From: Patescibacteria group bacterium
Lineage (GTDB): Bacteria > Patescibacteriota > Patescibacteriia > Buchananbacterales > UBA6539
Length of the DNA: 64,000 nt
Reading direction: 5' to 3'
NCBI GenBank assembly: GCA_028688055.1
Contig: JAQTYZ010000004.1
Coordinates: forward strand, 33,021 to 97,020
Under the pieces are notes generated by a model, which made no database searches, was not told the DNA's origin, and worked only from the letters and a program-made list of their open reading frames with translations. This document shows positions 7,701 to 41,525 of the stretch, in pieces. How positions within the stretch are numbered: position 1 is the first letter of the stretch; each line of letters starts with the position of its first letter. Both the position numbers and the translations under genes were made by a program.

Positions 7701-7732
7701 TAAGAATTATCACTAAATTACTAAAAATTTTT

Positions 7733-9113: not shown

Positions 9114-9129
9114 TAAATTATAATAAAAA

Positions 9130-9804
9130 TTAATCCTTAAATAAAATAGAATAAATGTAAAACAGAATTATAAAGGTAAAAAATATACCAATAGCGGTTA
9201 AATCAAAGTTAGTATAATAAAAATTTAAAAGACTAAATATAATATTTGACAGCACCACAAACGCTGATCCAACAATAATCTTTCTTAACTGAATTTTATA
9301 AATTCCTCCGCTTCCTTCGTAGCTAACAAACAAATTCTTGAACGACAGGGCAGAAAATAGAAAAAAATAAGTATTATAAATCGTCAGGTAAAATGGATTA
9401 ATTGTTCGGTATCTGAACGGAAAATTTGAATAGGCGGAAGTTATAAATTCGGGCCAAAAAGAAATAAAAGCAATAAAAATAACAATGCCATAAAAAAAAT
9501 AATATTTTGATTTAGGGGCAGCGTCAGGTACCGGAAAATTTCTAGTAAATAGGTAAAAGAAAATTAAAACCAAAGCTCCGGTTAGAAAACCCATTTGTGC
9601 GTGGAAAATGGGCGATAATGGAGTGAGTCTAAAATAATCAGAGAGAGTAAAGAGCATCCACAGACCCAGCACCAAAAGTGCCATCCCGAAATAATGAACC
9701 CCGCTACCCTTTCTTTTCAATAAAATATAGGACAAACAAAAACTGACAACCATTAAAATTACATTGATATATAGTATTACTGATAATAAATACTTTAAAA
9801 TCAT
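9130..9804 (-). CDS. Stand-alone multi-TM sensor-domain paralog.
   Basis: 224 aa. Closest to the 8430-9113 product (LLKRKGSGVHYFGMALLVLGLWM versus LLSKSKGKPIYFNFGMAQLALTFWL). Confidence 0.6.
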   Translation of the reverse strand: MILKYLLSVILYINVILMVVSFCLSYILLKRKGSGVHYFGMALLVLGLWMLFTLSDYFRLTPLSPIFHAQMGFLTGALVLIFFYLFTRNFPVPDAAPKSKYYFFYGIVIFIAFISFWPEFITSAYSNFPFRYRTINPFYLTIYNTYFFLFSALSFKNLFVSYEGSGGIYKIQLRKIIVGSAFVVLSNIIFSLLNFYYTNFDLTAIGIFFTFIILFYIYSILFKD

Positions 9805-9808
9805 AAAC

Positions 9809-10498
9809 TTACTTTATATAAAGTTTCTTATCCCCCAACAAAATAAACCAGGTTAAAACAATAACCATCGGCAAAGAAAGATATGCAACATACCATGGAT
9901 TATCAACCCCATAAATTAAAGGCAATATTACGCCCGGCAAAGTCCCAAAAATTGCCAATGATCCTGTAGCCAATAGTATAATTAAAGAATTTTTCTTTAT
10001 TAAACCTTGTGATTTAAAAAACTTTTTCATTAAAATATAAAATGCTATTAGCAAATACGAACAAAAAAATACTGAGTAATATACTCTGCCCGGCAGAGCG
10101 GAGCTAAAATTATTAAATGGGGGCATTAAAATAATATGATCCAAATATAAAGATGGGGTGATAATTATTATTATATCAATAAATAAACTAGCTACAATCA
10201 AAAATTTAAGATATGGCTTAATTTTAAATGATTGATATGGATAATAAATACAAAAAATAAAAAAGCTAACTGGAACCAATGATCCCGATAAGTTCTCAAA
10301 TATTGCCCAAAAAGTTGCCGCTGATAAATCAACCGATTCACGAAACATTGATTCTCCTAATGCCCATAATGCGAGAAGCATAAGGGATAATGCCAACATC
10401 AAATTGATCTTACTGTTTCTATTTCTCAACCATACCAATAAGCCGAGGAAAAAATTAAGAAAAGAAACTAAAATTTCACCAATGTTTATGGAATTCAT
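9809..10498 (-). CDS. Stand-alone multi-TM sensor-domain paralog.
   Basis: 229 aa. Aligns end-to-end with the 12220-12918 product. Confidence 0.6.
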   Translation of the reverse strand: MNSINIGEILVSFLNFFLGLLVWLRNRNSKINLMLALSLMLLALWALGESMFRESVDLSAATFWAIFENLSGSLVPVSFFIFCIYYPYQSFKIKPYLKFLIVASLFIDIIIIITPSLYLDHIILMPPFNNFSSALPGRVYYSVFFCSYLLIAFYILMKKFFKSQGLIKKNSLIILLATGSLAIFGTLPGVILPLIYGVDNPWYVAYLSLPMVIVLTWFILLGDKKLYIK

Positions 10499-10507
10499 AT
10501 CAAAATT

Positions 10508-10753
10508 TCACTTCAATTTTAATTTCATCGACAAAAATACTAGTCGAGCATGAAAATTCAACGAAAATTGAGTAGCCCTAAAATAATCTGAAAAAGACAT
10601 AAACATCCAAGTTAACAAAGCGACATTGGCTAATCCAAAACTAAAATAAATCTTAGTATTTTTAGCTCTGGAGATCAAAATTGAAGCTGTAATTAATAAT
10701 GCGAACATCATTGATGTATCAAGTAATAGTACCTCTTCAAAAAATAGTTTCAT
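10508..10753 (-). pseudogene. Internally deleted mini-paralog of the 7TM family (N-terminal helix fused to the C-terminal tail). Probably a pseudogene or mini-protein.
   Basis: 81 aa. The N-terminus (ISRAKNTKIYFSFGLANVALLTWMF) matches the paralogs. The C-terminal codons (VFLSMKLKLK) match the tail of the 12220-12918 product at DNA level. Confidence 0.4.
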
Positions 10754-10783
10754 AATAGATTAGTTATCCTTAATATTAAGAAT

Positions 10784-11908
10784 CTACCTAATCGACAAAT
10801 AACCAGCCCTCGTCCCTTGTTTCGAAAAAACTATCTGCCAAAGTTGTGTTTTCCTGGTTCTAAATAGAGCCGCCGAGGACAAAAGGTAATATTTCCACAT
10901 TCTATAAAATGTCTCATTGTAGCCTTCTTTTAAATTGTTCCAATTTTTATCAAAATTACTAAACCAGGCTAAAAGCGTTTTGTCGTAATCAAGACCAAAA
11001 TTATGCCAATCTTCCATAATAAATAATCCCTTCGACGACCGAATAATCTCTTCGGCAGCTGGTAACATTGAATTCGGGAAAATATACTTTAGTAACCAGG
11101 CATCCGAAATGGCTTTACTCTTGTTACATCCTATAGTGTGCAGTAAAAATAGTCCACCCATTTTCAAATTTTTATTCACAATAGACATATATGCTCTGTA
11201 ATTCTTGTTTCCAACATGTTCAAACATTCCTAAGGAAACAATATGATCAAACTTTTCATTAACCTCACGATAGTCTTGAAGTCGAATTTCTACCGGCAAA
11301 TCAGCACATATTCTATTACCTAAATCGACCTGCTCTTTTGAAACAGTTATTCCGACTACTGACACCCCATACTTTTCGGCTGCGTATTTTGCAAAACTGC
11401 CCCATCCGCAGCCAATATCTAAAATTTTTTGTCCTGACCTCAATTTTAACTTTCTGCACACCAAATCAAGTTTATTTTCCTGAGCTTCATCTATATTTTT
11501 AGCATCTTCCCAATATGCACACGTATAAACCATTCTTTTATCTAGCATTGCTTTATACAAATCATTTCCTATATCATAATGCTGCATACCGACATCAAAT
11601 GCATGGGAAACATCTTGTAAGTTTAAAAATTTTGCTCGAAAAATGCTAATAATTGTTTTCAAATTTTTTTTCAAATACTTATTAAGCCTGGCCTTAAAAA
11701 CTTTTTCGAAAAATTTGTCTAATTCCTTTACATCCCACCAACCAGCCATGTATGTTTCACCCATACCCAAAGTATTACCCGTCAAAAAACGCTGATAGAC
11801 CCTATCATCTTTAATTTGAATATCCCAAGACTTATCTCCGTTTACCTTAATTCCCGCTCCAGCAAGAAGCCCTTGGACTATTTTTTTATATTGGTTAAAA
11901 TTTATCAT
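10784..11908 (-). CDS. cfa: Cyclopropane-fatty-acyl-phospholipid synthase family methyltransferase.
   Basis: 374 aa. Collinear with E. coli Cfa across the catalytic core (LDIGCGWGSFAKYAAEKYGVSVVGITVS ... LQDYR ... FDHIVSLGMFEHVG ... LLHTIG ... YIFPN ... MEDWHNFG ... LWQIVFSK). Confidence 0.85.
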   Translation of the reverse strand: MINFNQYKKIVQGLLAGAGIKVNGDKSWDIQIKDDRVYQRFLTGNTLGMGETYMAGWWDVKELDKFFEKVFKARLNKYLKKNLKTIISIFRAKFLNLQDVSHAFDVGMQHYDIGNDLYKAMLDKRMVYTCAYWEDAKNIDEAQENKLDLVCRKLKLRSGQKILDIGCGWGSFAKYAAEKYGVSVVGITVSKEQVDLGNRICADLPVEIRLQDYREVNEKFDHIVSLGMFEHVGNKNYRAYMSIVNKNLKMGGLFLLHTIGCNKSKAISDAWLLKYIFPNSMLPAAEEIIRSSKGLFIMEDWHNFGLDYDKTLLAWFSNFDKNWNNLKEGYNETFYRMWKYYLLSSAALFRTRKTQLWQIVFSKQGTRAGYLSIR

Positions 11909-11949
11909 TTAGAATATATAACTTCTAATTATAATTAATAATTCATTTA

Positions 11950-12213
11950 TTAACCCCATCTTAACCTTGATGTCATCCATAAAAATACGTCCGCCATTAA
12001 AACTGGGTACAGCCAGACGATAAACTGACCGTAGAAATAAGTTCCGGTGAAATCAGCGACAAAATTGAAGATGCCACCGGCAAGACCGAAATTTAAATAA
12101 ACCTTATTGTTTTTAGATCTAGCAAGCAGTGTAAGAGATATAAAAAATGTTGCGACCATTAAAAAAATATCAACGAAAAAAATTCCAATTAATATATGCT
12201 TAAAAATATTCAT
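11950..12213 (-). pseudogene. Internally deleted mini-paralog of the 7TM family.
   Basis: 87 aa. The N-terminal helix (LARSKNNKVYLNFGLAGG) plus a C-terminal IVWLYPVLM segment match the two ends of the 12220-12918 product. Confidence 0.4.
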
Positions 12214-12219
12214 AATATT

Positions 12220-12918
12220 TCAAAACTTTATTTTAAATTTAATTTCATCAACAAAAATACCATAAGTCACAATTATCGGATATAGCCAAACAATAAAATC
12301 ACCATAGGGATAAATACCGAGCGTCTGAGGCAAAAAATTGGATCCTCCACCCAATGATAGTACAAGTGACCCAAGCAAAAGATAAAATGTCTTCTGCTTT
12401 ATTATGCCATCATTTGATGAATAAGCTACGTAAATCCAATAAATAGCCAAAAGCACATAAGCCCAGAAATAAACAATAAATAATGGATACCAACTGCCAG
12501 CATCGACCCAAGATGAAAAACCAAGTTTCGGCGATGAACCAGCAACTATTTTATCAGTAAAGCTCAAGGCTAAAAAAAATAAAGCTAAGAAATACCCTAA
12601 GCTTATTAAAACTATATTTTTTTTACTTCTAGCCTGATGGGTAAAACTCCAAATAAAATGTAAGAAAAAAATTGGGATAAAAGCGGCCGCCGCGTGTAAA
12701 ATTTTTGAGAAATAAACCCCTTCAGAACTCGTATCGCTCCCGATCAAAAAAAATAAACCGGTGGCCCAAAGTCCGATTGCAAGACAAAGTAAAAACCAAA
12801 ATTTTACCGTTAATGATTTTGGATTTTTTAAAATGCTAAACAGCCCTAATAGAAATGATAATACTGCCAGTAATCCGATACTAAATTCTAAAATTTGATT
12901 ACTCATCATAATTACCAA
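12220..12918 (-). CDS. Stand-alone multi-TM sensor-domain paralog. First gene of the minus-strand block.
   Basis: 232 aa. Homologous to the 9809-10498 product and to the kinase N-terminal domain. Confidence 0.6.
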   Translation of the reverse strand: MVIMMSNQILEFSIGLLAVLSFLLGLFSILKNPKSLTVKFWFLLCLAIGLWATGLFFLIGSDTSSEGVYFSKILHAAAAFIPIFFLHFIWSFTHQARSKKNIVLISLGYFLALFFLALSFTDKIVAGSSPKLGFSSWVDAGSWYPLFIVYFWAYVLLAIYWIYVAYSSNDGIIKQKTFYLLLGSLVLSLGGGSNFLPQTLGIYPYGDFIVWLYPIIVTYGIFVDEIKFKIKF

Positions 12919-12984
12919 AAAAGTATATTACAAAATATCTTAATTTTGACGGTTAAATTATACCACAAAACTATCATCTTTAGT

Positions 12985-13025
12985 AAATAAAAAAGCTCGA
13001 TTTCCCAGACTGGCAAAATCGAGCG
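12985..13025 (-). terminator. Rho-independent terminator downstream of the 13094-16828 gene.
   Basis: Minus strand has a GCTCGATTT/AAATCGAGC stem followed by TTTTTTATTT. Confidence 0.6.
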
Positions 13026-13093
13026 TCGCGCTTTGATTACGGCAAGGTTCGCGGTGATAATATCACCTCATTTTCGGCGTGGTCGGCAATTCC

Positions 13094-16000
13094 TCACGGC
13101 AGCGCGGGGTAGTTTCGCACCTCCAGGTAATCAAGGTTGATAGGTGTTTGGTTACCCCACTCATACCAACTACCGATCTCGTGCGCTCCGGCGGTCAAAT
13201 TGACCACCAGACTTGCTTCACCCCAGACATCCCATTGGTCTGGTCCGAGACTTGGCAGTGTCAACGTGTCGACCAACTGTCCGTCGACATAGATGTTGCG
13301 TGTCGCGTCGTCACTAGTGCCGTTGGCGTACCGGAATACCAGTTGGTATTGGCCGGCTTCAGGAATGGCGAGGGTAAAGTCCGCGCCACGGTTAGGGCTG
13401 TCAAAACCGTCAGCGAATCCGGTACCGGAGTAACCCCAGTGACCGGTGTTGATGCCAAGGCCCGTCAGGGTCGCCGCTTCGGCTTCAAGATGTTCAATCG
13501 GTGTCGCGACTTCAGTGACTTCCAGCGCGTCAAGGTTGATCGCCCCACCGTTCATCCAGTCTTGGACTAAGCCAATGGTGTGAGCGCCAGCGGTTAAATT
13601 CACGAGCACTTCGCTGTTGCCCCAGACGTCCCAGCTACTGCCAAGACCGAGGAAGGTTTGACGACTAAAATAGTCACAGTCAAGATAGACATTGCGGGTG
13701 GCCGGACTGGGGTCACCCCGGCTGTAGCGGAAACGTAAACGATAGGTGGCGTTCATTGGAACAGTGACGGCGAAATCAACGGCGTCACCAACACTTTCAT
13801 ATTGGTCGACAAAACCACTGCCAACATAATCAACGTGGTCAGTATCAACTGCGGTGTTGGTTAGTGAGGCCGTTTCGGCTTCCAAGCGTTGCCACCAATT
13901 GGGCAGTTGGGTCACTTCGAGGTAATCAAGATTGATCGCCCCGCTGTCAGACCACTCCGACGACAATTCAATCGTGTGAACACCGGCCGTCAGTGACCCT
14001 AATTGTGACGCGGTGCTCCAATCATCCCAAGTGCCAAGACTGGGAAATACCAGCGAGCTAAAATACTCGCCGTCAATCCAGATATGGCGAACCGCCGCGT
14101 CTGGGTAACCATTGGCGTAGCCGAAATCAAAGCGGTAGGTTCCGGCCAGCGGGACGTTAACCGTGAAACTGACAACATCACCAAAGCTTTCGAATTCATC
14201 GACAAAACCAATACCGCTGAAACCAGCGTGATCGGTGTCAACCGCGACGTTAGTCAATGTCGCCGCTTCGGCTTCAGACCGCTGGTGGTACATCAGCGTT
14301 GGATTGTTGAGCGTCAGCAGACAATGGCTAACGTCATTGTCCGTTCTGACATTTTGGACTGCATTGTCCGTATTGACCACGAGCCTTAAGTCGTACTGGC
14401 CGCTGGGAATTGAGCTGAAATCCAGCGTCGTTTCCCAGACTTCCCGTACCGCCAGTTGCGGTGCGAGTAATGACGCCACTAATGTGTCGTCGAGATAGAC
14501 TTCGTAGCGAAACGACGCGCAAGTGCTGTTGGCTTCGTTGCTCAGCGTCAGCGGCACCGCTGACGCGTCCACGTTCATGGTTGCCGGCAAATCCGACGCC
14601 GGATCAGTGAAGCGCACCACTTGCAGGTAGTCTTGGAAACTTCGATTGATACCTAGTAGCCCCAAGCTTGGCATGTCGCCATCAGCTTCAAACCAAACAC
14701 TGACGGCGACACTGGACGACAATAGGTAATCACTTCCGGTATGGAAGGTAACCGTGCAGAGAAACACTGTTGAGTAAGGCGCGATGTACGAAGGCAGTTG
14801 GTAGGTATTGGAATCCAACGTTGCCCAACTGCTGTTCACGGCAATACCGGAGTGACTACCAACAAAGTCAGTAATCGGATCGGCCGTATTGTTGAAGATG
14901 TAGTACGTCCGGGTGTAGGTTTGGTTTGGCAACAGCACAACAGGGCTATCGTAAGTAACGATGCTGACGTTCTGTCCCAAGGTCAGTGCCGCGCTACCCG
15001 CAGCGAGCACTACGCCGGTGGCTGAATACGCCGACACGTGAACCGTGACGGTTTGGCCGTTGCTCAGGTTGTAAATCGTGCACTGGGCATTCTGGAAATT
15101 GTTGTAGAAACTGCCGTTGACGCTGACGCGGTAGTAGGCCGCGCCGGCAATCGTTAACCAACTGGCATCCAAAGACAAAGTGCGGGGCTGCAAGACAACC
15201 TGCAAATTTTGCAGGGCGGGAGCGACAGGCAAGGTAACGGTCACGGTCGACGAGGTCGCCAAAACATTAGCGTTACCATCAACGGCCTCCAGGTGATAGC
15301 TATGCGAGGAGCTGGGAGCCAGGTTGCTCACCGTGAAGTCGAGCGTGGCTGGATTCAAGGTGCCGAGGTACTGGTTGTCTTGATAGACGCGATAGTACGA
15401 CGTACCAGTGACCGCACTGCCAGACAGGTAGACGGTGGTTGATGAAGTCTCGTTGGCGTAGAGGTTGAGACTGGTACCGTTGCCGGGGATGGTGGCATAG
15501 TGAAAACCTGCACTTAATGTTCCACGAACATCACTGTAGCCATAGACGGTGTCATAGACTAGATAGCCGTTGGCCATCTTTTGGACTGCCAACTGATGAC
15601 CGTTATAGTCATCCGTCGCATATTTTTCCTCCTCAACGGGACCGCCAAGTGTTCCCGAAGACATTTGGATATTTGGCCCACCGTAGGCTCTGTAGAAATC
15701 CCAGAGTTGACCATGAATGACGAAGGCTTTACTCTGGCTATGCTGAGAATCATACACTATTGCACACCCATTCAGAGAATCACCAGAGAAATTCTGAATC
15801 CAGCAACTACCCCATTGATGCGCCGCGACAGGACTAGCGTTGTCTGATACTGGCTCACCGACGAGTGAAGCTTTACCATTATCGTTAAAACAACTCACGA
15901 TAACAGGAGAGAGATCAGGACGCCAACCATTAACGGTTTCTCCAGGGCAAACAGAGTTTGACCATCCAGAGATTATGATAGAGTTGTTAGCGGTTAGATA

Positions 16001-16828
16001 CATCACCGCATGGCGAAAATCTTGACGCCAACCACTTCCATCTGAATAGAGAGGCGTGACAGCAAAGCCATATGACGACTCTCCGCCGCCGTTGGCCCAG
16101 GCTTGTCTTAAAGCTGTGTCAACTGGGTAGCGTCCACAAATTATGGGGCTGATGGTTAACACTCGGTCTAATCCGACCGAGGAAGGTGTATAAATAACAC
16201 CTTGGCCTGAGGTAGTGCCATTCCAGGTGGTATTGATGTTACCAAATGGATCATTGACTACTATTCTATAGTCATCAGTATAGCCAATGATTACCAGGTA
16301 ATGGCCATAGGTACTGGCTAAGTGACCAATTAATGGTCTACCGGCATCAATCTCTGATTTGATGGTAGACATCAGGCTGGAATAGATCCAAGCGCTACCT
16401 GTCGTTAACCCATGACGCTGGAGATATTCTACCGATGCTGAAGCATCAGCTTTCCAATCACCATCAATGGGCTTAACGATATAGCCATGCGCACCATACA
16501 CTACATGAGGATTGGTGTCATTTGAAGGATTCCAATCCCTAGCCCAGCTAGTCGTGTAGTCTTCACCGCTGACATCAGTACATCCCGAATATGCGTTGTA
16601 GACATACCATCCTTTGTAGCTGGACGGGTTGTCCGGTTGTAGGCCGTAGTAGCTCGTAATCATCACCGCACTTGTCGGCGCACACGCATTGTAACCAAGA
16701 AAGTCACCCTGATTCATATCCTGAACTTGATGGATGTAGGGAACATCCAATGTTACTGCCGCCGAGACTGAGCGACACACACCGACCAACATCAAAGACA
16801 CTAACATGACCATCAACTTAGCTTTCAT
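13094..16828 (-). CDS. Large secreted multidomain protein: signal peptide, C39-like (papain-like) peptidase domain, Ig/FN3-like beta region, then three tandem CBM6/CBM35-like (galactose-binding-like) repeats of about 130 aa.
   Basis: 1244 aa. AGGAG RBS 8 nt upstream. The N-terminus has a signal peptide, then YIHQVQDMNQGDFLGYNACAPTSAVM (Cys nucleophile context) and a later His/Asp. The C-terminal repeats carry LEAEAATLTNxAVDTDHxGxxGxGFVDxFESxGDxVxFxVxVP ... YRxxFRYANG ... NLTAGxHTIxL ... INLDYLEV. GC content is far above the flanks. Confidence 0.7.
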   Translation of the reverse strand: MKAKLMVMLVSLMLVGVCRSVSAAVTLDVPYIHQVQDMNQGDFLGYNACAPTSAVMITSYYGLQPDNPSSYKGWYVYNAYSGCTDVSGEDYTTSWARDWNPSNDTNPHVVYGAHGYIVKPIDGDWKADASASVEYLQRHGLTTGSAWIYSSLMSTIKSEIDAGRPLIGHLASTYGHYLVIIGYTDDYRIVVNDPFGNINTTWNGTTSGQGVIYTPSSVGLDRVLTISPIICGRYPVDTALRQAWANGGGESSYGFAVTPLYSDGSGWRQDFRHAVMYLTANNSIIISGWSNSVCPGETVNGWRPDLSPVIVSCFNDNGKASLVGEPVSDNASPVAAHQWGSCWIQNFSGDSLNGCAIVYDSQHSQSKAFVIHGQLWDFYRAYGGPNIQMSSGTLGGPVEEEKYATDDYNGHQLAVQKMANGYLVYDTVYGYSDVRGTLSAGFHYATIPGNGTSLNLYANETSSTTVYLSGSAVTGTSYYRVYQDNQYLGTLNPATLDFTVSNLAPSSSHSYHLEAVDGNANVLATSSTVTVTLPVAPALQNLQVVLQPRTLSLDASWLTIAGAAYYRVSVNGSFYNNFQNAQCTIYNLSNGQTVTVHVSAYSATGVVLAAGSAALTLGQNVSIVTYDSPVVLLPNQTYTRTYYIFNNTADPITDFVGSHSGIAVNSSWATLDSNTYQLPSYIAPYSTVFLCTVTFHTGSDYLLSSSVAVSVWFEADGDMPSLGLLGINRSFQDYLQVVRFTDPASDLPATMNVDASAVPLTLSNEANSTCASFRYEVYLDDTLVASLLAPQLAVREVWETTLDFSSIPSGQYDLRLVVNTDNAVQNVRTDNDVSHCLLTLNNPTLMYHQRSEAEAATLTNVAVDTDHAGFSGIGFVDEFESFGDVVSFTVNVPLAGTYRFDFGYANGYPDAAVRHIWIDGEYFSSLVFPSLGTWDDWSTASQLGSLTAGVHTIELSSEWSDSGAINLDYLEVTQLPNWWQRLEAETASLTNTAVDTDHVDYVGSGFVDQYESVGDAVDFAVTVPMNATYRLRFRYSRGDPSPATRNVYLDCDYFSRQTFLGLGSSWDVWGNSEVLVNLTAGAHTIGLVQDWMNGGAINLDALEVTEVATPIEHLEAEAATLTGLGINTGHWGYSGTGFADGFDSPNRGADFTLAIPEAGQYQLVFRYANGTSDDATRNIYVDGQLVDTLTLPSLGPDQWDVWGEASLVVNLTAGAHEIGSWYEWGNQTPINLDYLEVRNYPALP
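15322..15620. repeat. Copy 1 of a roughly 300-bp, about 94%-identical duplicated segment, lying inside the large secreted-protein gene.
   Basis: Direct alignment with 17840-18138 shows identical runs of 69 and 85 bp. Flanking homology continues at lower identity. Confidence 0.85.
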
Positions 16829-16982
16829 TGTACCAACTCCTTGTTGTTTGCCCTAAGACACAATCTTCACTTTTCAAAGAACTGACGTATAGGTTCATAC
16901 AGGAACCTTGATTGCCGCTATACAAAAAACATAGCATCGCACCAAACAAGGTGACTGTCGCGCTATGTTTTTTATTTATGTT

Positions 16983-17702
16983 TTAATTTATGTATTCTAT
17001 AGTTTGTAGAAAATTATTTTCAAGATTCTCTTTTCCATTAACACTTATATAATCATAATAGATATAATCGGAATCCGTCACATAAGGAGGTGCCTCAACT
17101 TTTTTGGAATAAACTAAATAATACATCTTTCCAATAAAGACACCAGCATGCTGACACATTTGACATGGACCAGACTGATCTGTAGTTTTGCAAGGCTGAC
17201 AAGGGCCATATTGGATAGCCAACTGATATGCATCAATATTATTATTCTGACCAACCAAAACTTTTGTGCGACTAATTAATTTGGTAGGTTCTCCAAAATC
17301 TTGTTTCCAGCCATACTTCACAATATAATCCTCAAGATTATCAGCGACCGGAAAAGCATCCCTAATGCTGCCTAAATGCATATATAGCGGCGTTGATGAC
17401 TTATCGTTATAACTTATATCAATGCTCGAACGGTCAGTTATAACATAAAGTTTATCATCCTTATCCTCAAACCTAAACTTAATTCCCCAATCTTTATTAG
17501 TATACGTTTTCCAACCATCCGCATCTTTAGTCAAAGTTATGTTTTCTTCCTTTAAGTCTGCAGTACTACTTGAAGTGTTAACATTTTGATTCACCGACTC
17601 ATTGGTATTAATCTTAACTGGTGGTTTTTTGTAGCATCCCGAAAGAATCGTGCTAAGGGCAAGGACGGTGAGTGTAAAAATTGTTAGTTTAAATTTGGAC
17701 AT
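16983..17702 (-). CDS. Lipoprotein, paralog A of three.
   Basis: 239 aa. Signal peptide with an LSGC lipobox, and a WKTYTNKDWGIKFRFEDK motif shared with the 19079-19723 and 22116-22769 products. Confidence 0.7.
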   Translation of the reverse strand: MSKFKLTIFTLTVLALSTILSGCYKKPPVKINTNESVNQNVNTSSSTADLKEENITLTKDADGWKTYTNKDWGIKFRFEDKDDKLYVITDRSSIDISYNDKSSTPLYMHLGSIRDAFPVADNLEDYIVKYGWKQDFGEPTKLISRTKVLVGQNNNIDAYQLAIQYGPCQPCKTTDQSGPCQMCQHAGVFIGKMYYLVYSKKVEAPPYVTDSDYIYYDYISVNGKENLENNFLQTIEYIN

Positions 17703-17732
17703 AATTTTGTAAAAAATAAAGCGCTTGAAGCG

Positions 17733-18917
17733 CTATGTTGGTAAAATGATGTTGTAGTAATTATCATCAGTAAATATATAGTGTTTAGGATAAAGTGTCA
17801 ACGGCCACGAGATAGTAGGTGGGGTTGAGCTTGGAGCTAGGTTGCTCACCGTGAAGTCGAGCGTGGCTGGATTCAAGGTACCGAGATACTGGTTGTCCTG
17901 ATAGACGCGATAGTACGACGTACCAGTGACTGCACTACCGGACAAGTAGACAGTGGTTGGTGATTGGGCCGTGGCGTAGAGGTTGAGACTGGTACCGTTG
18001 CCGGGGATGGTGGCATAGTGAAAACCTGCACTTAATGTTCCACGAGCATCGCTGTAGCCATAGACGGTGTCATAGACTAGATAGCCGTTGGCCATCTTTT
18101 GGACTGCCAACTGATGACCGTTATAGTCATCCGTCGCGTAGCGTTCTTGGTCGACTGGACCACCTAAATAACCAAGTACTGAAGTGTTGGCCTTAATGAA
18201 GTACCACAGTTGATTGTGGACTACGAACGCCTGGTTCGGGCTGTTAACAGTGTCATACAAAATGGCACATTCACCCAACGTGCCACCACTGAACATCTGG
18301 AACAGACAATTTGACACATTGGGCCAAACACTGACACGCCCGTCTGTGAAAGGCACCTCTAAATTAGCAACGGTGCATCCGATTTTTATGTTGTCACCGT
18401 TAGTGTGATAACAACACAAAAATTCCTTACAGTTGCTTCCATCCTGATTTCTGCCAACCATTAAACGGTAGAAATAAACTTGGTGATTAGGCTTTGTAGA
18501 GACGTAGGCATATGGGTCCCAATTATGATCCCTCACTTTAAAATCCTGGGGATCACTATAGTTGGAATCTACTACTTCATAGTAGCTTCCACTAATACCT
18601 GCGTAGACAGCGGAATGATAGATGTAGTAATCATCCCACTCATAGTTAATAGTTGGATTACTGGTCTGGATGATGTCACCAGACTGCAGAACCGATACTT
18701 CTGTAAAGCCTGCATCTAGATAGCAGTCATGATATCCAGCTCCCAGGGTACCCCCAATCTGACCAATAACAAACTGCACAAACTCCTTACAGGACCAGCC
18801 GTATTGACCAACATACGTCTTTGCCTTGTCAGCAATGTTGATGTTGGTCTGGGCAAACGCTTGACCAATACACATCATTATGACACAAACAAAAAAAACA
18901 ATCTGCTTATTTTTCAT
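17733..18917 (-). CDS. Secreted CHAP/NlpC-P60-like cysteine peptidase or amidase domain protein. Its C-terminal beta region is shared with the 13094-16828 protein.
   Basis: Start moved to MKNKQIVFF (AAGGAAGG RBS). Signal peptide, then a GWSCKEFVQ Cys and YHSAVY His (CHAP-like). A C-terminal roughly 130 aa is near-identical to an internal segment of the large protein. Confidence 0.6.
   Translation of the reverse strand: MKNKQIVFFVCVIMMCIGQAFAQTNINIADKAKTYVGQYGWSCKEFVQFVIGQIGGTLGAGYHDCYLDAGFTEVSVLQSGDIIQTSNPTINYEWDDYYIYHSAVYAGISGSYYEVVDSNYSDPQDFKVRDHNWDPYAYVSTKPNHQVYFYRLMVGRNQDGSNCKEFLCCYHTNGDNIKIGCTVANLEVPFTDGRVSVWPNVSNCLFQMFSGGTLGECAILYDTVNSPNQAFVVHNQLWYFIKANTSVLGYLGGPVDQERYATDDYNGHQLAVQKMANGYLVYDTVYGYSDARGTLSAGFHYATIPGNGTSLNLYATAQSPTTVYLSGSAVTGTSYYRVYQDNQYLGTLNPATLDFTVSNLAPSSTPPTISWPLTLYPKHYIFTDDNYYNIILPT
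17840..18138. repeat. Copy 2 of the duplicated segment, lying inside the CHAP-like gene.
   Basis: See copy 1. Confidence 0.85.
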
Positions 18918-19078
18918 CACACACCTTCCTTTCAAGTTGTCAAAGTTCATCATCTCCCTCTTTTTGCCACAAGGCATCAAGAGAAAAGCCCTCAACCTAG
19001 AGGACTTCTCAAAATAATAGATAGCACTATTACTTAGAGAAACACTCTAAGAAATGCGCTATGTTGATTATAAAAAAA

Positions 19079-19723
19079 TTATTTTACTAGCTGAAAGGAT
19101 TTAACTAAGTCATTATATACTTCTAAGTCTTTATCTAACTGATCAACATCAGTATTATCATACCTTCGGTGGAATCTAAGAACAACATAGATATTTTTAT
19201 TTGGAACATTAACGGAAGTATCTACTATTCTGATCCATATATTTGGGATAGTACTACCCTCAGGATCTTTGTAAGGTAGATCTCCGGATATTTTAACAAA
19301 ATTATTTCCGTTAGCAACAACTTCTTTTTCTACCACGTTGGTGATAATAGACATTTGTGATTCATTCAATGTATTTGGGCTATCTCCAATAGATACAGAA
19401 ATTTTTGCGTCTGGCAAATTAACATTACACGCAACTTTTGTATCAGATAAAATTAATAGGTTATCATAAGTATTTTGATCACAGCTATCTAGATACCACT
19501 GGAGTGGATACTTAAACTCAAACCCATACTCATCGTTTCTGTAAGTTTTCCAATCTGATGTATTGATATCGGCAGTGGTTGTTGCACTATTAGTATTTTG
19601 ATCAGCATTCACATTCTGCCCTTCAACATTGCTCAGGGTGACTGGTTTTTTATAACACCCCGAAACCACCGTGCTGACAGCAAGGACTATGAGGGTAAAA
19701 ATTGTTAGTTTAAGCTTGGTCAT
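19079..19723 (-). CDS. Lipoprotein, paralog B.
   Basis: 214 aa. VSGC lipobox, DWKTYRNDEYGFEFKYPLQW motif. Confidence 0.7.
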   Translation of the reverse strand: MTKLKLTIFTLIVLAVSTVVSGCYKKPVTLSNVEGQNVNADQNTNSATTTADINTSDWKTYRNDEYGFEFKYPLQWYLDSCDQNTYDNLLILSDTKVACNVNLPDAKISVSIGDSPNTLNESQMSIITNVVEKEVVANGNNFVKISGDLPYKDPEGSTIPNIWIRIVDTSVNVPNKNIYVVLRFHRRYDNTDVDQLDKDLEVYNDLVKSFQLVK

Positions 19724-19890
19724 ATTTTTGTAAAAAATAAAGCGCTCTAGGCGCTATGTCATTAAAACGATGTTGTAGTAATTATCATCAGTAAATATAT
19801 AGCGTGTGATCTAAAAAGTCAACGGCCACGAGATAGTAGGTGTGGGTTGAGCTGGGAGCTCGGTTGCTCACCATGAAATTGAGCGTGGTC
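19724..19890. repeat. Truncated third copy of the duplicated unit (the 3' end of a secreted-enzyme gene plus the intergenic terminator region).
   Basis: 19724-19817 matches 17703-17810 (ttttgtaaaaaataaagcgc...gatgttgtagtaattatcatcagtaaatatatag). 19818-19890 matches 17811-17880, the 3' end of the CHAP-like gene and the start of the identical block. Homology then breaks off abruptly. Confidence 0.7.
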
Positions 19891-19916
19891 GGCTAAATTC
19901 TTTGGTTTATAAATTT

Positions 19917-20432
19917 TCATAAATCATCGTGATCTTTCAAAACTTTATAATCATGCAAATTAATTCCGTATTTTTCATAAACCATTTTTGTTGTAATGGG
20001 AAAATGTTTTACATAACCCATTCTTTTTATTGCCTCTAACACCGCTGACTTGCTGCCACCTTCAATTTCGATATAGGGAGGAATCATTGGCCATTCTTCA
20101 ATGGTAATTTCCACATCATTCCATCTACAACTTTGTTCATAATTATATTGCTCAGCTATTAATTCACACCCCAATACTTTTAATAATTTAGCGGCTTTTT
20201 CAGGATTAACTTCAAATTCAAATTCTTCAATACCACCAATAGTATAAGTTTTATAATTTTTATAACTTAAAGTGTTATCTATTATTCTAATCCAGGCTTT
20301 GTCTTCTTTATTTGGGAGATCAAACACTAAACGCTTAATTAATCTTCGAGATGTAAACACTGCTCCATCTAGTTTTTCCTTTAATGAAGCAATGTCGATG
20401 TCTAATATTTTTGTTTCAAATTCTAAATCCAT
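19917..20432 (-). CDS. CYTH-domain protein (triphosphate tunnel metalloenzyme, class IV adenylyl cyclase-like).
   Basis: LEFETKILDIDIASLKEKL (ExExK-type N-terminal motif) ... IEIEGGS. An ATG at 20432 is preferred. An alternative GTG start at 20483 would add 17 aa. Confidence 0.6.
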   Translation of the reverse strand: MDLEFETKILDIDIASLKEKLDGAVFTSRRLIKRLVFDLPNKEDKAWIRIIDNTLSYKNYKTYTIGGIEEFEFEVNPEKAAKLLKVLGCELIAEQYNYEQSCRWNDVEITIEEWPMIPPYIEIEGGSKSAVLEAIKRMGYVKHFPITTKMVYEKYGINLHDYKVLKDHDDL

Positions 20433-20488
20433 AACATAATAAAGGGCAGGAGAAAGGAGACAGCTTCCTCTCTCCTGCCTCACGGTTA

Positions 20489-21403
20489 TTAGAGTTTGAG
20501 TCTATCGGCAACCAGTTGACCGCATCCGACCTTAATGTCCTTCATCGGGCCAAAGACGTAGGCGTTAGCGCCGGCTTCTTGAGCACAGCTCAGGAGCTGA
20601 TGATGCTGCGATTCTCCAACGCATCTCAAGCCATGAGCATCAGAACAATCCGTCGCATTGAGGAAGGAAAGCTTGAATTCAGAGCCATCCAATACTCCGC
20701 ATTGTTTCAGCCGTTCAACGGTACCCCTAACTACCTCTTCGTTGTCGTTGAACCCGGCAATGCAGATGAAATTGAATTTGATGCGGATATCAGGTCGCAA
20801 AGTCTTGATCTCACGGACCGCCAGCAGAACCTGCTCGGAATCGTAACCATTCCTATTGCCGAGAATATGTTTCAACTGGTCATTCTCGTAATGAGGGAAG
20901 GTCACTTGTAGTGCCTCCCAATTCGGGATCTCACGAGCTAATAATAACATACCCTCCGGCCTTGCGCCCATCGTTGAGATTTTAAACCTTGAGCCGGGAT
21001 AAAGCCCTAGGATCTCTTGGGCCGATGCGATGACCACTTTCGGTATCAGTGAAGATTCACCAATACCTTGATAGCAAAAATGCTTCGGCACTTCATCGTG
21101 CTCGGCCAAATCTGCCAAACAACAGGCCTGCTCGACAATCTCCTCGACGCTCAATAAAGACGCTTTGCCAAGATTGCCACTAGCGCAAAAAAGACAGCCA
21201 ATCGGGCATCCGAACATACTGGAGACTTCAATGGCATACCTGATCGGAACACCGTCATGCCTTTGCTCGTAAATCGAGCCTTCAATCATCTTGCCTGTCC
21301 GCCGGACCTTAAAAACGTAACGTCTTGCCCGCTGGCCATTGAAACACCGGCCAACATACGGATAGGCATCTTCAAACCGTTGCACGATCTCCATTGTCTT
21401 CAT
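20489..21403 (-). CDS. RlmN/Cfr-family radical SAM enzyme (RNA adenosine C2/C8 methyltransferase-like) lacking the N-terminal HhH domain.
   Basis: 304 aa. VSSMFGCPIGCLFCASGNLG matches VSSQVGCALGCTFCATG of RlmN, and YQGIGESS matches MGMGEPL. ISTMG and GCGQLVAD are also conserved. About 52% GC versus about 30% for the next gene downstream. Confidence 0.65.
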   Translation of the reverse strand: MKTMEIVQRFEDAYPYVGRCFNGQRARRYVFKVRRTGKMIEGSIYEQRHDGVPIRYAIEVSSMFGCPIGCLFCASGNLGKASLLSVEEIVEQACCLADLAEHDEVPKHFCYQGIGESSLIPKVVIASAQEILGLYPGSRFKISTMGARPEGMLLLAREIPNWEALQVTFPHYENDQLKHILGNRNGYDSEQVLLAVREIKTLRPDIRIKFNFICIAGFNDNEEVVRGTVERLKQCGVLDGSEFKLSFLNATDCSDAHGLRCVGESQHHQLLSCAQEAGANAYVFGPMKDIKVGCGQLVADRLKL

Positions 21404-21590
21404 TGCTCACACTCCTTTAACTAAAGGACATCACCTCCTCCCTTGCTTTAGGGTTAAGAGGCCAAGCCTTCCCCAATGGAAAACTTTTCTAAAAATAAAA
21501 CACAGCATTTTATTCTTAGAAAAAATTTCCAAGAATTTGCGCTATGTCGATTAAATTTATAAATTGAGTTTTTTAAATTTGTTTTGGCGT

Positions 21591-22007
21591 TTAAGCGTGA
21601 CTAGATTTTATTAATCCTTTCCGTAACATTCTTTTGGCATTCGGCCAGATAAAATTATAATTATCCAAATCATCGGCAGCCACCCATTCCATTTTACTAT
21701 GTTCATGGCTCAAACTTATCTGGTCATTATCATTTTTTATTAAATAAGCCACACCGCTGTAAGGTTTACCTGAAGACGAATACCAAACATCAAAATCGAT
21801 TAAATCAATGATCTCAAAATCAGACAAATTCAATTCCTCTTTAATTTCTCTTCTAAAGGCGGCTTCGCCATTTTCTTTTTCATCAATTCTTCCTCCCGGC
21901 AATCCCCAGTAACCGCGCCGGTCCGAAAATTCTAAAACTAAACATTTGTTATTTCTGACTAAAACTGCCACTTGGCTGATCGTAAATTTTTCAAATTTTT
22001 TATTCAT
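21591..22007 (-). CDS. NUDIX hydrolase.
   Basis: Nudix box GLPGGRIDEKENGEAAFRREIKEELNL. Confidence 0.85.
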   Translation of the reverse strand: MNKKFEKFTISQVAVLVRNNKCLVLEFSDRRGYWGLPGGRIDEKENGEAAFRREIKEELNLSDFEIIDLIDFDVWYSSSGKPYSGVAYLIKNDNDQISLSHEHSKMEWVAADDLDNYNFIWPNAKRMLRKGLIKSSHA

Positions 22008-22115
22008 AGATCTAAAAAATATGTACAGTCATACTCTTAGAGAAAGTCTCCAAAATGCGCTATGTATAGTTAAACTATCCTACACAAATTTTAAATTAAA
22101 ATTAAAATAAAAAAA

Positions 22116-22769
22116 TTAATTAATAAATCTAAAGGAATCTATTAACCCAAAATAAACTTTATCAATTTCAGCATTAATTTCCTTCGAGCCAAGATTTACT
22201 TTAGATATTGAATATTGTTTATAATTCTTAAAAATATCAGTTTCAACCCCTAAATAATCAGAACTTTGGACTGCATGGTCGCTTCTTTCAATTGATACTT
22301 CTTTGACAACACCCCCTCTATTGTCTTTTATATTGATTAAGTCACTCCTCCAATTATTAAAGGAAAAATCACGACTAATACTAATAACATTTATACTTAT
22401 CAAATAAGTAATGGATCCCTCAAGAGCATAAGAATTTCGACTATCTCTAAATTCAACAATGCCAGAAGAGCTTATTTTATATTCCCAACTTTTAGGATAT
22501 TTAAATTCAAACCCATACTGATCATTTCGGTAAGTCTTCCAACTTGGAGTATCAATCTCAGCCGTGGTAGTGGAAGTATCGGCATTAACATTTTCATTCA
22601 GATTAACATTCTGATTCTCATTCTGGATTCCCGTCGGCACGGGAATGACAGCGTTGGTATTAGTATTTGTATTGTCATTCTGAACTTGTTTCAGAATCTG
22701 ACACCCCGAAACCACCGTGCTGACAGCAAGGACTATGAGGGTAAAAATTGTTAGTTTAAGCTTGGACAT
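22116..22769 (-). CDS. Lipoprotein, paralog C.
   Basis: 217 aa. VSGC lipobox, SWKTYRNDQYGFEFKYPKSWEY motif. Confidence 0.7.
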   Translation of the reverse strand: MSKLKLTIFTLIVLAVSTVVSGCQILKQVQNDNTNTNTNAVIPVPTGIQNENQNVNLNENVNADTSTTTAEIDTPSWKTYRNDQYGFEFKYPKSWEYKISSSGIVEFRDSRNSYALEGSITYLISINVISISRDFSFNNWRSDLINIKDNRGGVVKEVSIERSDHAVQSSDYLGVETDIFKNYKQYSISKVNLGSKEINAEIDKVYFGLIDSFRFIN

Positions 22770-22964
22770 ATTTCATCATTTCTCTGATTATTCTAGCATT
22801 AAAGTCCTATTATCGGGAGCCCAGGCTCAATCCACCTTCATCAAGTACTCTTTGCGGGCTCCAGGCTCAACATAGCGCGAAAAGCTCAAGGACCCGCAAA
22901 GAACATTTGATAACATTGGCGGACAAACACCGCGCGAAAGCTCAAAGCTCCCGATAATAACCCT

Positions 22965-23195
22965 CTACGCCCGACTCAATAAACGGCACTCTAGCGTATT
23001 GCCGTTTGGTAATTTGACTGTCACCTGACTCGGATAACGCTTGCCTAGCAACGCCCTGGCCAAAGGCGACAGATAGGAAATGACGCCGTGTTTCGGATCG
23101 CCGGTCGGCACGTCAACAATTTCCAGCTCCCTTATCGCACCGTCCAAAATCACTTTAACTTTGTCGCCGATATTAACTGTATAGTTGCTACTCAT
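22965..23195 (-). CDS. Small GreA/GreB C-terminal-domain-like protein.
   Basis: 76 aa. ISYLSPLARALLGKRYPSQVTVKLPNG resembles the GreA C-terminal FKBP-like domain (SPIGKALLGK...). Confidence 0.5.
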   Translation of the reverse strand: MSSNYTVNIGDKVKVILDGAIRELEIVDVPTGDPKHGVISYLSPLARALLGKRYPSQVTVKLPNGNTLECRLLSRA

Positions 23196-23410
23196 ATAAT
23201 TTTTTAATTTCTAATGAGGTTATCCACTTATTTTCGCGACGGCGGAGCAAGCCGACGGCGCTAGTTCATCTTTTTAAAAAAATTCCACCGGCATTAATTT
23301 ATTGAGTGGTATTTTTTTAAAGTCCGCTTTAATTTTATTTTTCGCGACGGCGCAATGTGTTGCGACGGCGCAATTTCTATATTCATCTTAGCAAATTTAT
23401 TAACTTTGTC

Positions 23411-23436
23411 AAGAAAAACCCCGCCTCGGCGGGGTT
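23411..23436 (-). terminator. Rho-independent terminator of the 24992-23458 operon.
   Basis: Minus strand has a CCCCGCC/GGCGGGG stem followed by TTTTTCTT. Confidence 0.65.
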
Positions 23437-23457
23437 TAGATCAAAACTAAATAAAAA

Positions 23458-24060
23458 TTATTTTTTGATAAACTTTTGATACGCCTCGTCGGCATCAATT
23501 AAATCCTCAATTTTATGACGCAAAAAATCCGCTTTCGAAATTTTAGTATTATGAGTTTTCCATTGCAAATATCTTTCAATTCTCGAGGTAATGCGCAAGG
23601 TAAATTTAATGGTCGGCACTTCACGCCCTTCACCTTTCTCCACATTTTCCAAAAATTCAGTTATGACGCTGCCCAAACTCTTCTCATTATAATTTGCCAG
23701 CGTCAACAAACGCGAAGTGTTTTTATCTTTTTGTAAATGAAGCAAATTTTTATTAAGCAGTTTGCCTTTTTCCACCAAATACAAAATCGGTTTTTGATGA
23801 GTCAACGCAATCGCAATTAGATAGCCACTTTCCGGCACCGTTCGACTGCCTTCGATAACCAGCGCATCCATTCGCTCAATCAAAACTTCGCCCGACTGAT
23901 TAATTTTTTCCAAATCTTGGCTGGAAAATCCGCTGACACTGCGATCCACCAAGTTACTCATAATCAAAACGCCCGACGCCGTCAAAATCTCAATAATTTT
24001 TGAGAAATTTTTCTGCAGTCTTTCCTCGGCTTGATTGTCGGCGGTAAAGTATATTCTCAT
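23458..24060 (-). CDS. Hypothetical protein with a nucleoside 2-deoxyribosyltransferase-like (Rossmann/SLOG-like) N-terminal half and a possible RHH-like C-terminal tail.
   Basis: 200 aa. MRIYFTADN ... ALVIEGSRTVPESGYLIAIAL resembles the NDT-like fold pattern. Weak. Confidence 0.35.
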   Translation of the reverse strand: MRIYFTADNQAEERLQKNFSKIIEILTASGVLIMSNLVDRSVSGFSSQDLEKINQSGEVLIERMDALVIEGSRTVPESGYLIAIALTHQKPILYLVEKGKLLNKNLLHLQKDKNTSRLLTLANYNEKSLGSVITEFLENVEKGEGREVPTIKFTLRITSRIERYLQWKTHNTKISKADFLRHKIEDLIDADEAYQKFIKK

Positions 24061-41486: not shown

Positions 41487-41525
41487 TTAAATTCATCAAC
41501 ATAGCGCCTTAAACCAAGGCGTTTT

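Follow-up and report, generated by a model that had tools for sequence, protein, structure and literature searches.

A Patescibacteria array of heterologous gene pairs for a lipoprotein and a putative hydrolase with two short blocks probably homogenised by recombination

Patescibacteria live attached to other microbes. To our knowledge very little is known about their surface and secreted proteins acting on their own walls or on those of their hosts, and we know of no specialised toxin secretion in the phylum. In this study we analysed an array of lipoprotein and secreted enzyme genes in a 64-kb stretch of the contig JAQTYZ010000004.1 (hereafter the window), which belongs to a short-read metagenome-assembled genome (MAG) of the Patescibacteria or candidate phyla radiation (CPR). 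All genes at 13094-22769 are located on the minus strand. Read from 22769 to 13094 they comprise lipoprotein C (lipoC), a NUDIX hydrolase, a radical SAM protein (rSAM), a CYTH-like protein, the 3' remnant of an enzyme gene, lipoprotein B (lipoB), a CHAP-like short enzyme, lipoprotein A (lipoA) and a C39_2 long enzyme. We placed the left edge of the array at 13094, since its strongest repeat falls inside the gene of the long enzyme of 1244 amino acids (aa). Along the array the GC content switches abruptly from 0.52 to 0.34, to 0.45 and back to 0.34. The enzyme genes are GC-rich (0.45-0.52) and the neighbouring lipoprotein genes AT-rich (0.33-0.35) in all three genomes examined, which are independent assemblies from different samples. 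As this split recurs in all three, a recent horizontal transfer as the source of the GC-rich enzymes was not supported; amino-acid composition and an older foreign origin of the enzymes are candidate causes.

An earlier note on this DNA had described three paralogous lipoproteins, and we found them at exactly the positions it gave, each with the lipobox and the WKTY motif. LipoA (16983-17702, 239 aa, lipobox LSGC), lipoB (19079-19723, 214 aa) and lipoC (22116-22769, 217 aa) have in common a signal peptide, a lipobox (LSGC or VSGC) and the motif WKTY(T/R)N..(W/Y)G(I/F)(K/E)F (WKTY..YGFEFKYP). A six-frame regular-expression scan of the window detected no further lipoprotein of this family. The C-domains of the three proteins displayed no significant pairwise similarity within the window, a weak link between lipoB and lipoC excepted. 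That of lipoA is Cys-rich and had no detectable relative among the sequences compared, and the only similarities with E<0.01 were weak ones between lipoC and lipoB-type proteins of relatives (E 1e-4 to 3e-3). In a whole-protein search lipoB and lipoC were connected (P0008). LipoB carries a PsbP/Mog1-fold domain; it is 100% identical to a database entry named 'PsbP-related protein' and scored 28.9 bits against PF18933 (PsbP_2), above the cut-off of 27. LipoC remained below this cut-off with 22.4 bits and lipoA gave no match. In a fold search conducted for lipoB only, its AlphaFold2 (AF2) model (mean predicted local distance difference test, pLDDT, 88) had the PsbP/CyanoP/Mog1 fold, with CyanoP 2LNJ as the best match (E 6e-7, template modelling (TM) score ~0.6). 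PsbP, Mog1p, LpqN, DcrB, MTC28 and Tsi3 were also matched, the latter at rank 18 with E 4e-3. The PF18933 score, the fold matches, the N-terminal lipobox and a low-complexity linker are shared with PsbP/Mog1-fold envelope lipoproteins (PF18933; LpqN, DcrB, MTC28); the weak or missing matches of lipoC and lipoA and the hypervariable C-domains of the paralogues are not. The lipoproteins would be membrane-anchored PsbP-fold proteins with a putative role as partners of the enzymes.

The long secreted enzyme (13094-16828, minus strand, GC 0.52) consists of a signal peptide, a Peptidase_C39_2 domain at residues 27-194 (PF13529, 44.8 bits against a gathering cut-off of 24), an LGFP-like region, an Fn3-like module, a CARDB domain (E 6.6e-9) and three CBM35 domains (CBM_35, E 4e-41). 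The short secreted enzyme (17733-18917, minus strand) comprises a signal peptide, a divergent CHAP-like (NlpC/P60-fold) domain, an LGFP-like region and an Fn3-like module ending in '..AVD'. Its open reading frame (ORF) has 420 codons with a TTG start at 18995, and the NCBI annotation (P0025) gives 394 aa from an ATG at 18917. This annotation, 'hypothetical protein', conceals a truncated and frameshifted gene. The term CHAP-like had been used in the earlier note and holds on indirect grounds. The domain itself had no Pfam or NCBIfam match even at E<=10 and no sequence match in the PDB, and a homologue search with the 420-aa protein returned only six proteins. An exhaustive search of representatives with the N-domain yielded 128 relatives, and of the 40 that were aligned 14 matched PF05257 (CHAP); Cys21, His79 and Asn97 are invariant across these 40. 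The AF2 model of the domain (pLDDT 86) matched Tae3 (top, E 9e-5), CHAP endolysins and NlpC/P60 endopeptidases, including the CHAP domains of LysK, LysGH15, PlyGRCS and Ly7917 as well as P60 domains. We kept the label because of the PF05257 matches of the homologues, the invariant Cys/His/Asn and the predicted fold.

The CHAP-like and C39_2 N-domains showed no similarity to each other. The two enzymes share residues 192-391 of the short and 310-508 of the long protein (66% aa identity), that is, the LGFP-like region and the Fn3-like domain, and we refer to the 3' portion of this shared part as module M. Most likely both are Sec-secreted papain-like cysteine peptidases with wall- or carbohydrate-binding modules, acting as peptidoglycan hydrolases. 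In combining a signal peptide, a papain-like Cys/His domain and LGFP-like, Fn3 and CBM binding repeats they resemble the modular wall hydrolases of Gram-positive bacteria (CHAP, NlpC/P60, C39-like YvpB-type). The array differs from these in that a direct Pfam CHAP match is missing, the enzyme genes alternate with genes for PsbP-fold lipoproteins and the module appears homogenised between the paralogues.

Self-BLASTN over 12500-23500 revealed repeated blocks with E values from 5e-31 to 8e-136, far above chance, and the self-alignment that the earlier note had proposed as a check thus supports its repeats. The largest and strongest repeat was absent from that note: 15279-15646 and 17798-18164 are 88.9% identical over 368 bp (E 8e-136). 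These are the two copies of module M on the minus strand. Copy 1, inside the gene of the long enzyme, spans the end of the LGFP-like region and the Fn3-like domain, and copy 2 forms together with 17622-17797 one contiguous junction block of module M, promoter/leader and signal-peptide codons. A further repeat, 17622-17866 versus 19643-19888, is 85.0% identical over 246 bp with one 1-nt indel (E 5e-75) and covers the signal-peptide codons of the lipoproteins, the spacer and the 3' end of the enzyme gene. The note had described the sequences upstream of lipoA and lipoB as repeated almost exactly. The repeat exists, but 85% identity with an indel is less than almost exact, and it reaches ~80 bp into the lipoprotein coding sequence. 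The extension of this repeat by ~70 bp into an enzyme 3' end upstream of lipoB (19819-19888), stopping close to the CYTH-like gene, was confirmed. Moreover, 15279-15348 and 19819-19888 are 78.6% identical over 70 bp, and the 5' ends of lipoB and lipoC around the start codon (19655-19727 versus 22701-22773) are 98.6% identical over 73 bp; further into the gene this falls to 74%. The repeated blocks share the same orientation and lie 2021 and 2518 bp apart.

The identity along these repeats is a mosaic. In the enzyme genes the nucleotide identity is ~55-63% upstream of 15620/18138 and then jumps abruptly (from 18/30 to 30/30; sliding identity from ~60% to 99%). A core tract of 15470-15619 versus 17988-18137 follows with 148 of 150 positions identical, and after this core the identity is 78-96% as far as ~15320/17838. 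High identity is therefore confined to two short blocks with sharp edges, and the change is stepwise instead of gradual. At the protein level, copies of the module share 93% identity inside the window, compared with 47-51% across genomes.

At 19819-19895 (minus strand) lies an unannotated remnant, which derives from the 3' end of an enzyme module M. Its identity to 15279-15348 is 79%, and it belongs to the block shared with 17798-17866 at 85%. Read in the ancestral frame it gives ..TLNFMVSNRAPSSTHTYYLVAVD, and its counterpart in the long enzyme is ..TLDFTVSNLAPSSSHSYHLEAVD; the corresponding peptides are STHTYYLVAVD and SSHSYHLEAVD. A TAG at 19895-19893 closes this frame upstream and the remnant is therefore non-coding. 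Its homology stops at about 19888-19895, ~22-28 bp short of the stop codon of the CYTH-like gene (19917-19919). The remnant marks a lost upstream enzyme copy, of which the last ~70 bp of the module are fused to the lipoB promoter block. The short enzyme is partly degraded as well. A 1-nt deletion near 17821/17822 (AACCCACACC vs AACCCCACC) gives its ORF an out-of-frame tail of 30 codons up to a TAG at 17733-17735, and this frameshifted tail overlaps the lipoA promoter/leader block. In unit A and unit B, the units of lipoA and lipoB, the homology to the long gene stops at the codons GCC GTT GAC, which are fused to TTGACA/TTGACT-17-TATATT. Due to this common end point, the truncation of the Fn3-like domain predates the duplication of A and B, and the frameshift occurred later.

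Upstream of lipoA and lipoB we identified a promoter/leader block in two copies. Copy A (17703-17801, minus strand) contains TTGACA (17801-17796), a 17-nt spacer, TATATT (to 17773), the hairpin AGCGCTTCAAGCGCT (17734-17720) and a U-run. Copy B (19724-19822, minus strand) is built from TTGACT (19822-19817), a 17-nt spacer, TATATT, the hairpin AGCGCCTAGAGCGCT (19755-19741) and a U-run. The predicted promoters scored 11/12 and 10/12, respectively. Both hairpins have the form AGCGC..GCGCT followed by TTTATTTTTT and are weak (-8 to -10 kcal/mol). LipoC has no promoter/leader block and its upstream region differs. The same layout was found in the related contigs L030 (both copies) and L028: TTGACA, 17 nt, a -10-like box, ~45 nt, an AGCGC-N4-5-GCGCT hairpin, a U-run and an ATG 8-10 nt further on. 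The hairpins lie at 1455-1470 and 3670-3685 in L030 and at 5660-5676 in L028, and in L030 the upstream gene ends with a stop codon that sits within TTGACA. The earlier note had listed the hairpin with its T-run as a terminator. Both are present, but the sequence, which is also conserved in L028 and L030, is mainly a predicted promoter/leader of the lipoprotein gene and not only a terminator of the enzyme gene. No Shine-Dalgarno sequence was evident, and the hairpin may function as an attenuator or as an unusual leader for translation initiation.

In a metagenome scan with module M only four loci were found, and full-length relatives amount to two to three loci; lipoproteins with 46-49% identity to full-length lipoB sit on short metagenomic contigs. 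The contigs L030/L031 carry, in this order, a histidine kinase, a lipoprotein (lipo194), a C39-type enzyme of 467 aa with a complete Fn3 end, a lipoB-type lipoprotein (lipo220) and a CHAP-type enzyme of 1405 aa with CARDB and other tail domains. L028 contains a lipoB-type lipoprotein and then a CHAP-type enzyme. The gene order lipoprotein, hairpin, enzyme thus repeats across the three assemblies. The earlier note had assumed units with the enzyme gene first and the lipoprotein gene second; this arrangement was not upheld. The conserved pair is a lipoprotein gene upstream of an enzyme gene, and a lipoB-type lipoprotein directly precedes the CHAP type 1 enzyme in 3/3 genomes with known context. 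LipoB is orthologous to the lipoproteins preceding the CHAP-type enzymes in L028 and L030/L031 and to P0004: its C-domain is 43-62% identical at the aa level among the window, L030, L028 and P0004, and the CHAP domain 55-61% among the window, L031 and L028.

The two blocks behave differently from these variable parts. In L030 module M is 96.7% identical over 396 bp between its two enzyme genes, and two copies of the block of upstream spacer, promoter and lipoprotein 5' end agree at 95.4% over 345 bp. Between the window and L030 these two blocks reach an identity of only 68-75%. Related genomes differ at this locus in gene order, in apparent copy number and in which enzyme bears the long tail: the window has a long C39-type and a short CHAP-type enzyme, and in the relatives the CHAP-type enzyme of L031 is the long one and the C39-type enzyme of L030 the short one. 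L035 and L036, from the same metagenome as L030, each add one more lipoprotein variant, and the enzyme that follows it combines a different CHAP-like N-domain with the identical module, in which the contig ends. In this metagenome a single module is found with at least four different catalytic N-domains, the types seen including C39, CHAP type 1 and two more CHAP-like ones.

From the observed repeats and their mosaic identity, from the orthologous parts in other genomes and from the folds of the domains and the conservation of regulatory motifs we conclude that the locus is probably a lineage-conserved array in which heterologous lipoprotein-hydrolase pairs share two blocks homogenised by recombination, together with a remnant at a breakpoint and a short enzyme that is partly degraded. 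Since the blocks are near-identical within genomes and ~70% identical between them, while the parts between the blocks are old and orthologous, concerted evolution explains the array better than a recent duplication of whole units. Recombination, either as gene conversion or as unequal crossing-over, is the cause of the block identity that we infer from these patterns. Each pair would consist of a gene for a PsbP-fold lipoprotein and a following gene for a Sec-secreted papain-like peptidase (CHAP-like or C39-like). Block (i) would be the lipoprotein promoter (TTGACA-17-TATATT) with the leader hairpin and the signal-peptide codons, and block (ii) the LGFP-like/Fn3-like module M of the enzymes. 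These two blocks would bracket a variable cassette of lipoprotein C-domain, terminator spacer and catalytic N-domain. Homologous recombination between block copies may keep the blocks near-identical within a genome, and the same process may reorder, duplicate, truncate and re-fuse the cassettes, so that different catalytic domains come to lie on the long carbohydrate-binding tail. The tail on C39 in the window and on CHAP in L031 is as expected from recombination within module M. The remnant at 19819-19895 could be the footprint of such an event, in which the rest of the upstream enzyme was lost and rSAM and the CYTH-like gene now stand in its place. Lipoprotein and enzyme would cooperate functionally; their constant adjacency and the 3/3 pairing of lipoB-type with CHAP type 1 suggest a coupling in which the lipoprotein acts as inhibitor, activator or adaptor.

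Several points weigh against this reading. Repeated independent partial duplications could mimic gene conversion. Mis-joins at repeats are possible in a short-read MAG contig, a concern tempered by the divergence of the window repeats (85-89% identical overall, with exact stretches of at most ~150 bp). The relatives are a handful of short metagenomic contigs and include no strain-level relative, so that neither the direction and timing of conversion nor copy-number variation can be measured, and the assignment of L030, L035 and L036 to a single genome is unproven. The C39 domains of the window and of L030 are distant relatives with 25% identity over 189 aa. Besides, the C39-type enzymes of L030 and L034 are 59% identical and the lipoproteins preceding them are unrelated; pairing is consequently not strict (0/1 for the C39 type).

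The duplicated [secreted enzyme + lipoprotein] units of the earlier note would mean that one such unit was copied in tandem two or three times and is now diverging and decaying, with the high-identity blocks as the sequence not yet diverged. Direct repeats at 2021 and 2518 bp and the existence of truncated and frameshifted copies agree with this. We nevertheless judge it improbable, as the catalytic domains belong to different families (CHAP-like versus C39_2), the lipoprotein C-domains have no detectable similarity to each other and the identity, limited to the two blocks, changes in steps. Moreover, the variable parts have orthologues elsewhere with 43-61% aa identity and hence predate the split of the genomes, whereas the blocks are 95-99% identical within and ~70% identical between genomes. 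What stands of the expanding and decaying tandem family in the note are the repeated blocks, the remnant and the variation between genomes; duplication of whole units with subsequent decay conflicts with the block identities found in L030. That the assembly merged reads of different organisms into a chimera at short repeats is very improbable: the sharp GC switches, the origin from a MAG and the breaks of the relatives' assemblies at these repeats would fit an artefact, but GC alternation and gene order recur in the three independent assemblies and repeats with 85-89% identity are resolved by assemblers.

We also considered a polymorphic effector/immunity-like system, in which the CHAP and C39 hydrolases are antibacterial or host-directed effectors, the lipoproteins their cognate inhibitors or adaptors and the remnant the scar of an orphan cassette. 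Homogenised blocks that flank a variable cassette would allow enzymatic domains to be interchanged on a conserved scaffold, as would be consistent with the four or more N-domains on one module in a single metagenome, and the lipoB-type/CHAP type 1 pairing fits as well. The top structure match of the CHAP-like domain is Tae3, a type VI secretion system (T6SS) amidase effector, and among the matches of the lipoB model is Tsi3, the protein that gives immunity to the muramidase effector Tse3. Polymorphic toxin loci have been catalogued with PsbP/MOG1-like proteins and with C39-like peptidase toxin domains (PMC3482391). Both folds are generic, however, and PsbP/Mog1 and NlpC/P60-CHAP proteins have many housekeeping members; CPR bacteria need autolysins for their own wall, too. 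The pairing fails for the C39 type, the layout is reversed relative to the classical C-terminal toxin with a downstream immunity gene and no specialised secretion system was seen beside the array. PADLOC, an anti-phage defence library that is not expected to include such a system, had no match for the lipoproteins, the enzymes or the CYTH-like protein. We therefore regard the effector/immunity explanation as unlikely. Equally doubtful, and put forward as a speculation, is the more specific proposal that the array is a Sec-dependent, CPR-specific polymorphic wall-hydrolase system whose matched cassettes, each made of a lipoprotein domain acting as inhibitor or adaptor and a catalytic domain of a hydrolase, are exchanged at the two homogenised flanks. 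If it were true, an episymbiont could vary its enzymes against the walls of hosts or competitors while protecting its own.

Compared with known systems, the array as we read it, i.e. lipoprotein-hydrolase pairs with blocks homogenised by recombination, resembles the concerted evolution of bacterial multigene families in that paralogues are closer within than between genomes, tracts are sharp, copies are in direct orientation and truncated by-products occur. It differs in that only two short blocks in otherwise non-homologous genes are involved, one of them mainly promoter/leader and signal-peptide codons. With polymorphic toxin-immunity loci (contact-dependent inhibition (CDI)/Rhs/LXG; PMC3482391) it shares a conserved region with interchangeable enzymatic domains, a varying small adjacent gene and truncated orphan fragments that keep the recombination-prone segment. 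In contrast to these loci, the variable domain sits near the N-terminus, just behind a Sec signal peptide, the small gene lies upstream, pairing is not strict and no machinery of secretion types 5, 6 or 7 (T5, T6, T7) or trafficking domain of the polymorphic toxin (PT) type was seen here. Tae3-Tai3 and Tse3-Tsi3 of the T6SS also combine a wall hydrolase gene with an adjoining gene for a small extracytoplasmic protein, and the CHAP-like domain is nearest to Tae3 and the lipoB model matches Tsi3. This likeness is at the fold level only (9-21% identity, TM ~0.5-0.6), no T6SS genes were seen near the array and the enzymes of the array are large, Sec-secreted and built of several domains, CBM35, CARDB and Fn3 among them.

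A literature search found nothing specific on a lipoprotein/CHAP system of Patescibacteria. Concerted evolution, modular wall hydrolases and cassette-type polymorphic loci are already known; new is this form of array in a poorly studied phylum. The locus mixes catalytic domains of putative wall hydrolases, carbohydrate-binding tails and putative partner lipoproteins in a lineage-conserved and probably recombination-prone setting, and if the lipoproteins were cognate inhibitors or adaptors it would represent a new layout of effector-immunity organisation. Since the repeats break metagenome assemblies, as seen in the relatives, copy numbers in MAGs are likely under-reported.

Between the remnant and lipoC lie the genes for the CYTH-like protein (19917-20483), rSAM (20489-21403; 304 aa, GC 0.50, a divergent RlmN/Cfr-like protein) and the NUDIX hydrolase (21591-22007; 138 aa), all on the minus strand. 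The 188-aa ORF called CYTH in the earlier note had no Pfam match and is weakly supported as CYTH-like by its sequence. The ExExK residues E2, E4 and K6 are invariant in four homologues, and a profile search against the PDB gave 2EEN (E 2.7e-5) and 2DC4 (E 1.9e-4), which are listed there as hypothetical proteins and which we take to be CYTH-family proteins. TIGR00318 was matched with E 0.022, far below the cut-off of that model. A 14-bp GC-rich stem (GGCAGGAGAGAGGAAGCTGTCTCCTTTCTCCTGCC) at 20445-20479 (minus strand) lies at the 5' end of this ORF, over the GTG start region just past the rSAM stop codon. As the region homologous to other proteins begins near residue 18-20, the true start is probably located downstream, which would make this hairpin intergenic.

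The pair of CYTH-like and rSAM genes is kept in at least four related Patescibacteria contigs (L037, L039, L040/41) with 43-49% and 46-51% aa identity, respectively. In these relatives CYTH comes first, the genes overlap and they lie beside the same HisKA_7TM/histidine-kinase cluster; in the window the order is opposite and NUDIX is added. Foreign insertion of the three genes as the cause of the enzyme truncation was rejected on account of this conserved pair and neighbourhood. The pair is thus native to the lineage, and the region has been rearranged. Of the earlier view that a second enzyme was truncated at the CYTH gene by insertion or deletion, the truncated remnant holds, and the pair is no obvious foreign insertion. 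The spacer between NUDIX and rSAM (21404-21590, minus strand) contains a two-tier hairpin (21478-21554) and a GGAGGTGATG region, and its part 21557-21476 is 79.5% identical over 83 bp to 6330-6412 of L028 (E 5e-13), a spacer between lipoprotein and enzyme, in three collinear segments including GGAGGTGATG. One flank of rSAM and CYTH thus resembles the 5' spacer of an enzyme gene, and the other flank an enzyme 3' end. That the two genes took the place of most of a third enzyme gene, which would have followed lipoC, is plausible but not proven, as the hairpin spacer is found elsewhere, too (41499).

An exact-protein look-up of lipoB retrieved no contig. A scan of genome contigs with rSAM yielded only relatives with 25-59% identity in the best segment and 24-27% over the full length, from archaea and Chloroflexota, and in the one locus inspected (L006) the neighbours of the relative were unrelated. 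The closest relatives of the rSAM/CYTH pair among the GTDB representatives were proteins of Methanomassiliicoccales with 25-27% identity. In PADLOC, NUDIX matched PDC-S07 (E 1.5e-15) and rSAM gave a Cas6b match at chance level.

Two-tier hairpins with the plan ACATAGC, inner stem-loop, GCTATGT and T-run were found after each lipoprotein gene, after NUDIX and after one distant gene. The hairpin after lipoA (16905-16975, minus strand) reads AACATAGC...GCTATGTT followed by a T-run (-22.1 kcal/mol, z-score -3.3), and that after lipoB (19005-19071, minus strand) ACATAGCGC..CTTAGAG/CTCTAAG..GCTAT (-18.3 kcal/mol, z-score -3.8). NUDIX has a ACATAGCGC hairpin on each side. This 9-mer occurs eight times in the window against 0.43 expected, with hairpin sites at 16960-16968, 19056-19064, 21539-21547 and 22057-22065 on the minus strand and 41499-41507 on the plus strand, as well as at 6340 in L028 and 2104 in L030. 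In the hairpin alignment 84% of the cells pair, compared with 35-52% in slid controls, and four of the seven inner pairs covary. The sequence of the outer stem is kept across genomes whose proteins are only ~50% identical; the inner stem is variable and covaries. In sequence the hairpins look like intrinsic terminators with a lineage-conserved stem, and they may be more than plain terminators, e.g. a protein-binding or processing site. In the window Rfam reported only four tRNAs at the gathering threshold, and no family matched the array hairpins. Integron-type cassettes had no support, as the hairpins carry T-runs, resemble intrinsic terminators and include a distant one (41499); an integrase was not searched for systematically.

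Next to the array, 4693-12918 is AT-rich (GC 0.26-0.34) and contains four stand-alone HisKA_7TM membrane paralogues (12220-12918, 9809-10498, 9130-9804 and 8430-9113, the last without a Pfam match). Genes for a cyclopropane-fatty-acyl synthase-like protein, a methyltransferase, an autoinducer-synthase/FeeM-like N-acyl synthase and a 7TM-GAF histidine kinase are also located there. The cluster of HisKA_7TM paralogues and 7TM-GAF kinase recurs in L037 and L040/L041, in L037 together with methyltransferase and N-acyl synthase, and may be a signalling module. L030, L031, L040 and L041 overlap end to end into a cycle of 17.5 kb with the order histidine kinase, lipo194, C39, lipo220, the large CHAP enzyme, CYTH, rSAM, four 7TM genes, an SDH-like gene, NAD synthase and again the histidine kinase. 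The overlaps measure 1120, 141 and 123 bp, of which 141 and 123 fit assembly k-mer sizes (141 appears in the ENA contig names as 'k141_'), and the cycle could be a tandem duplication, a circular element or a mere branch of the assembly graph. Directly upstream of lipoC, a 76-aa ORF at 22965-23195 consists of the GreA/GreB C-terminal domain alone (E 1.8e-13).

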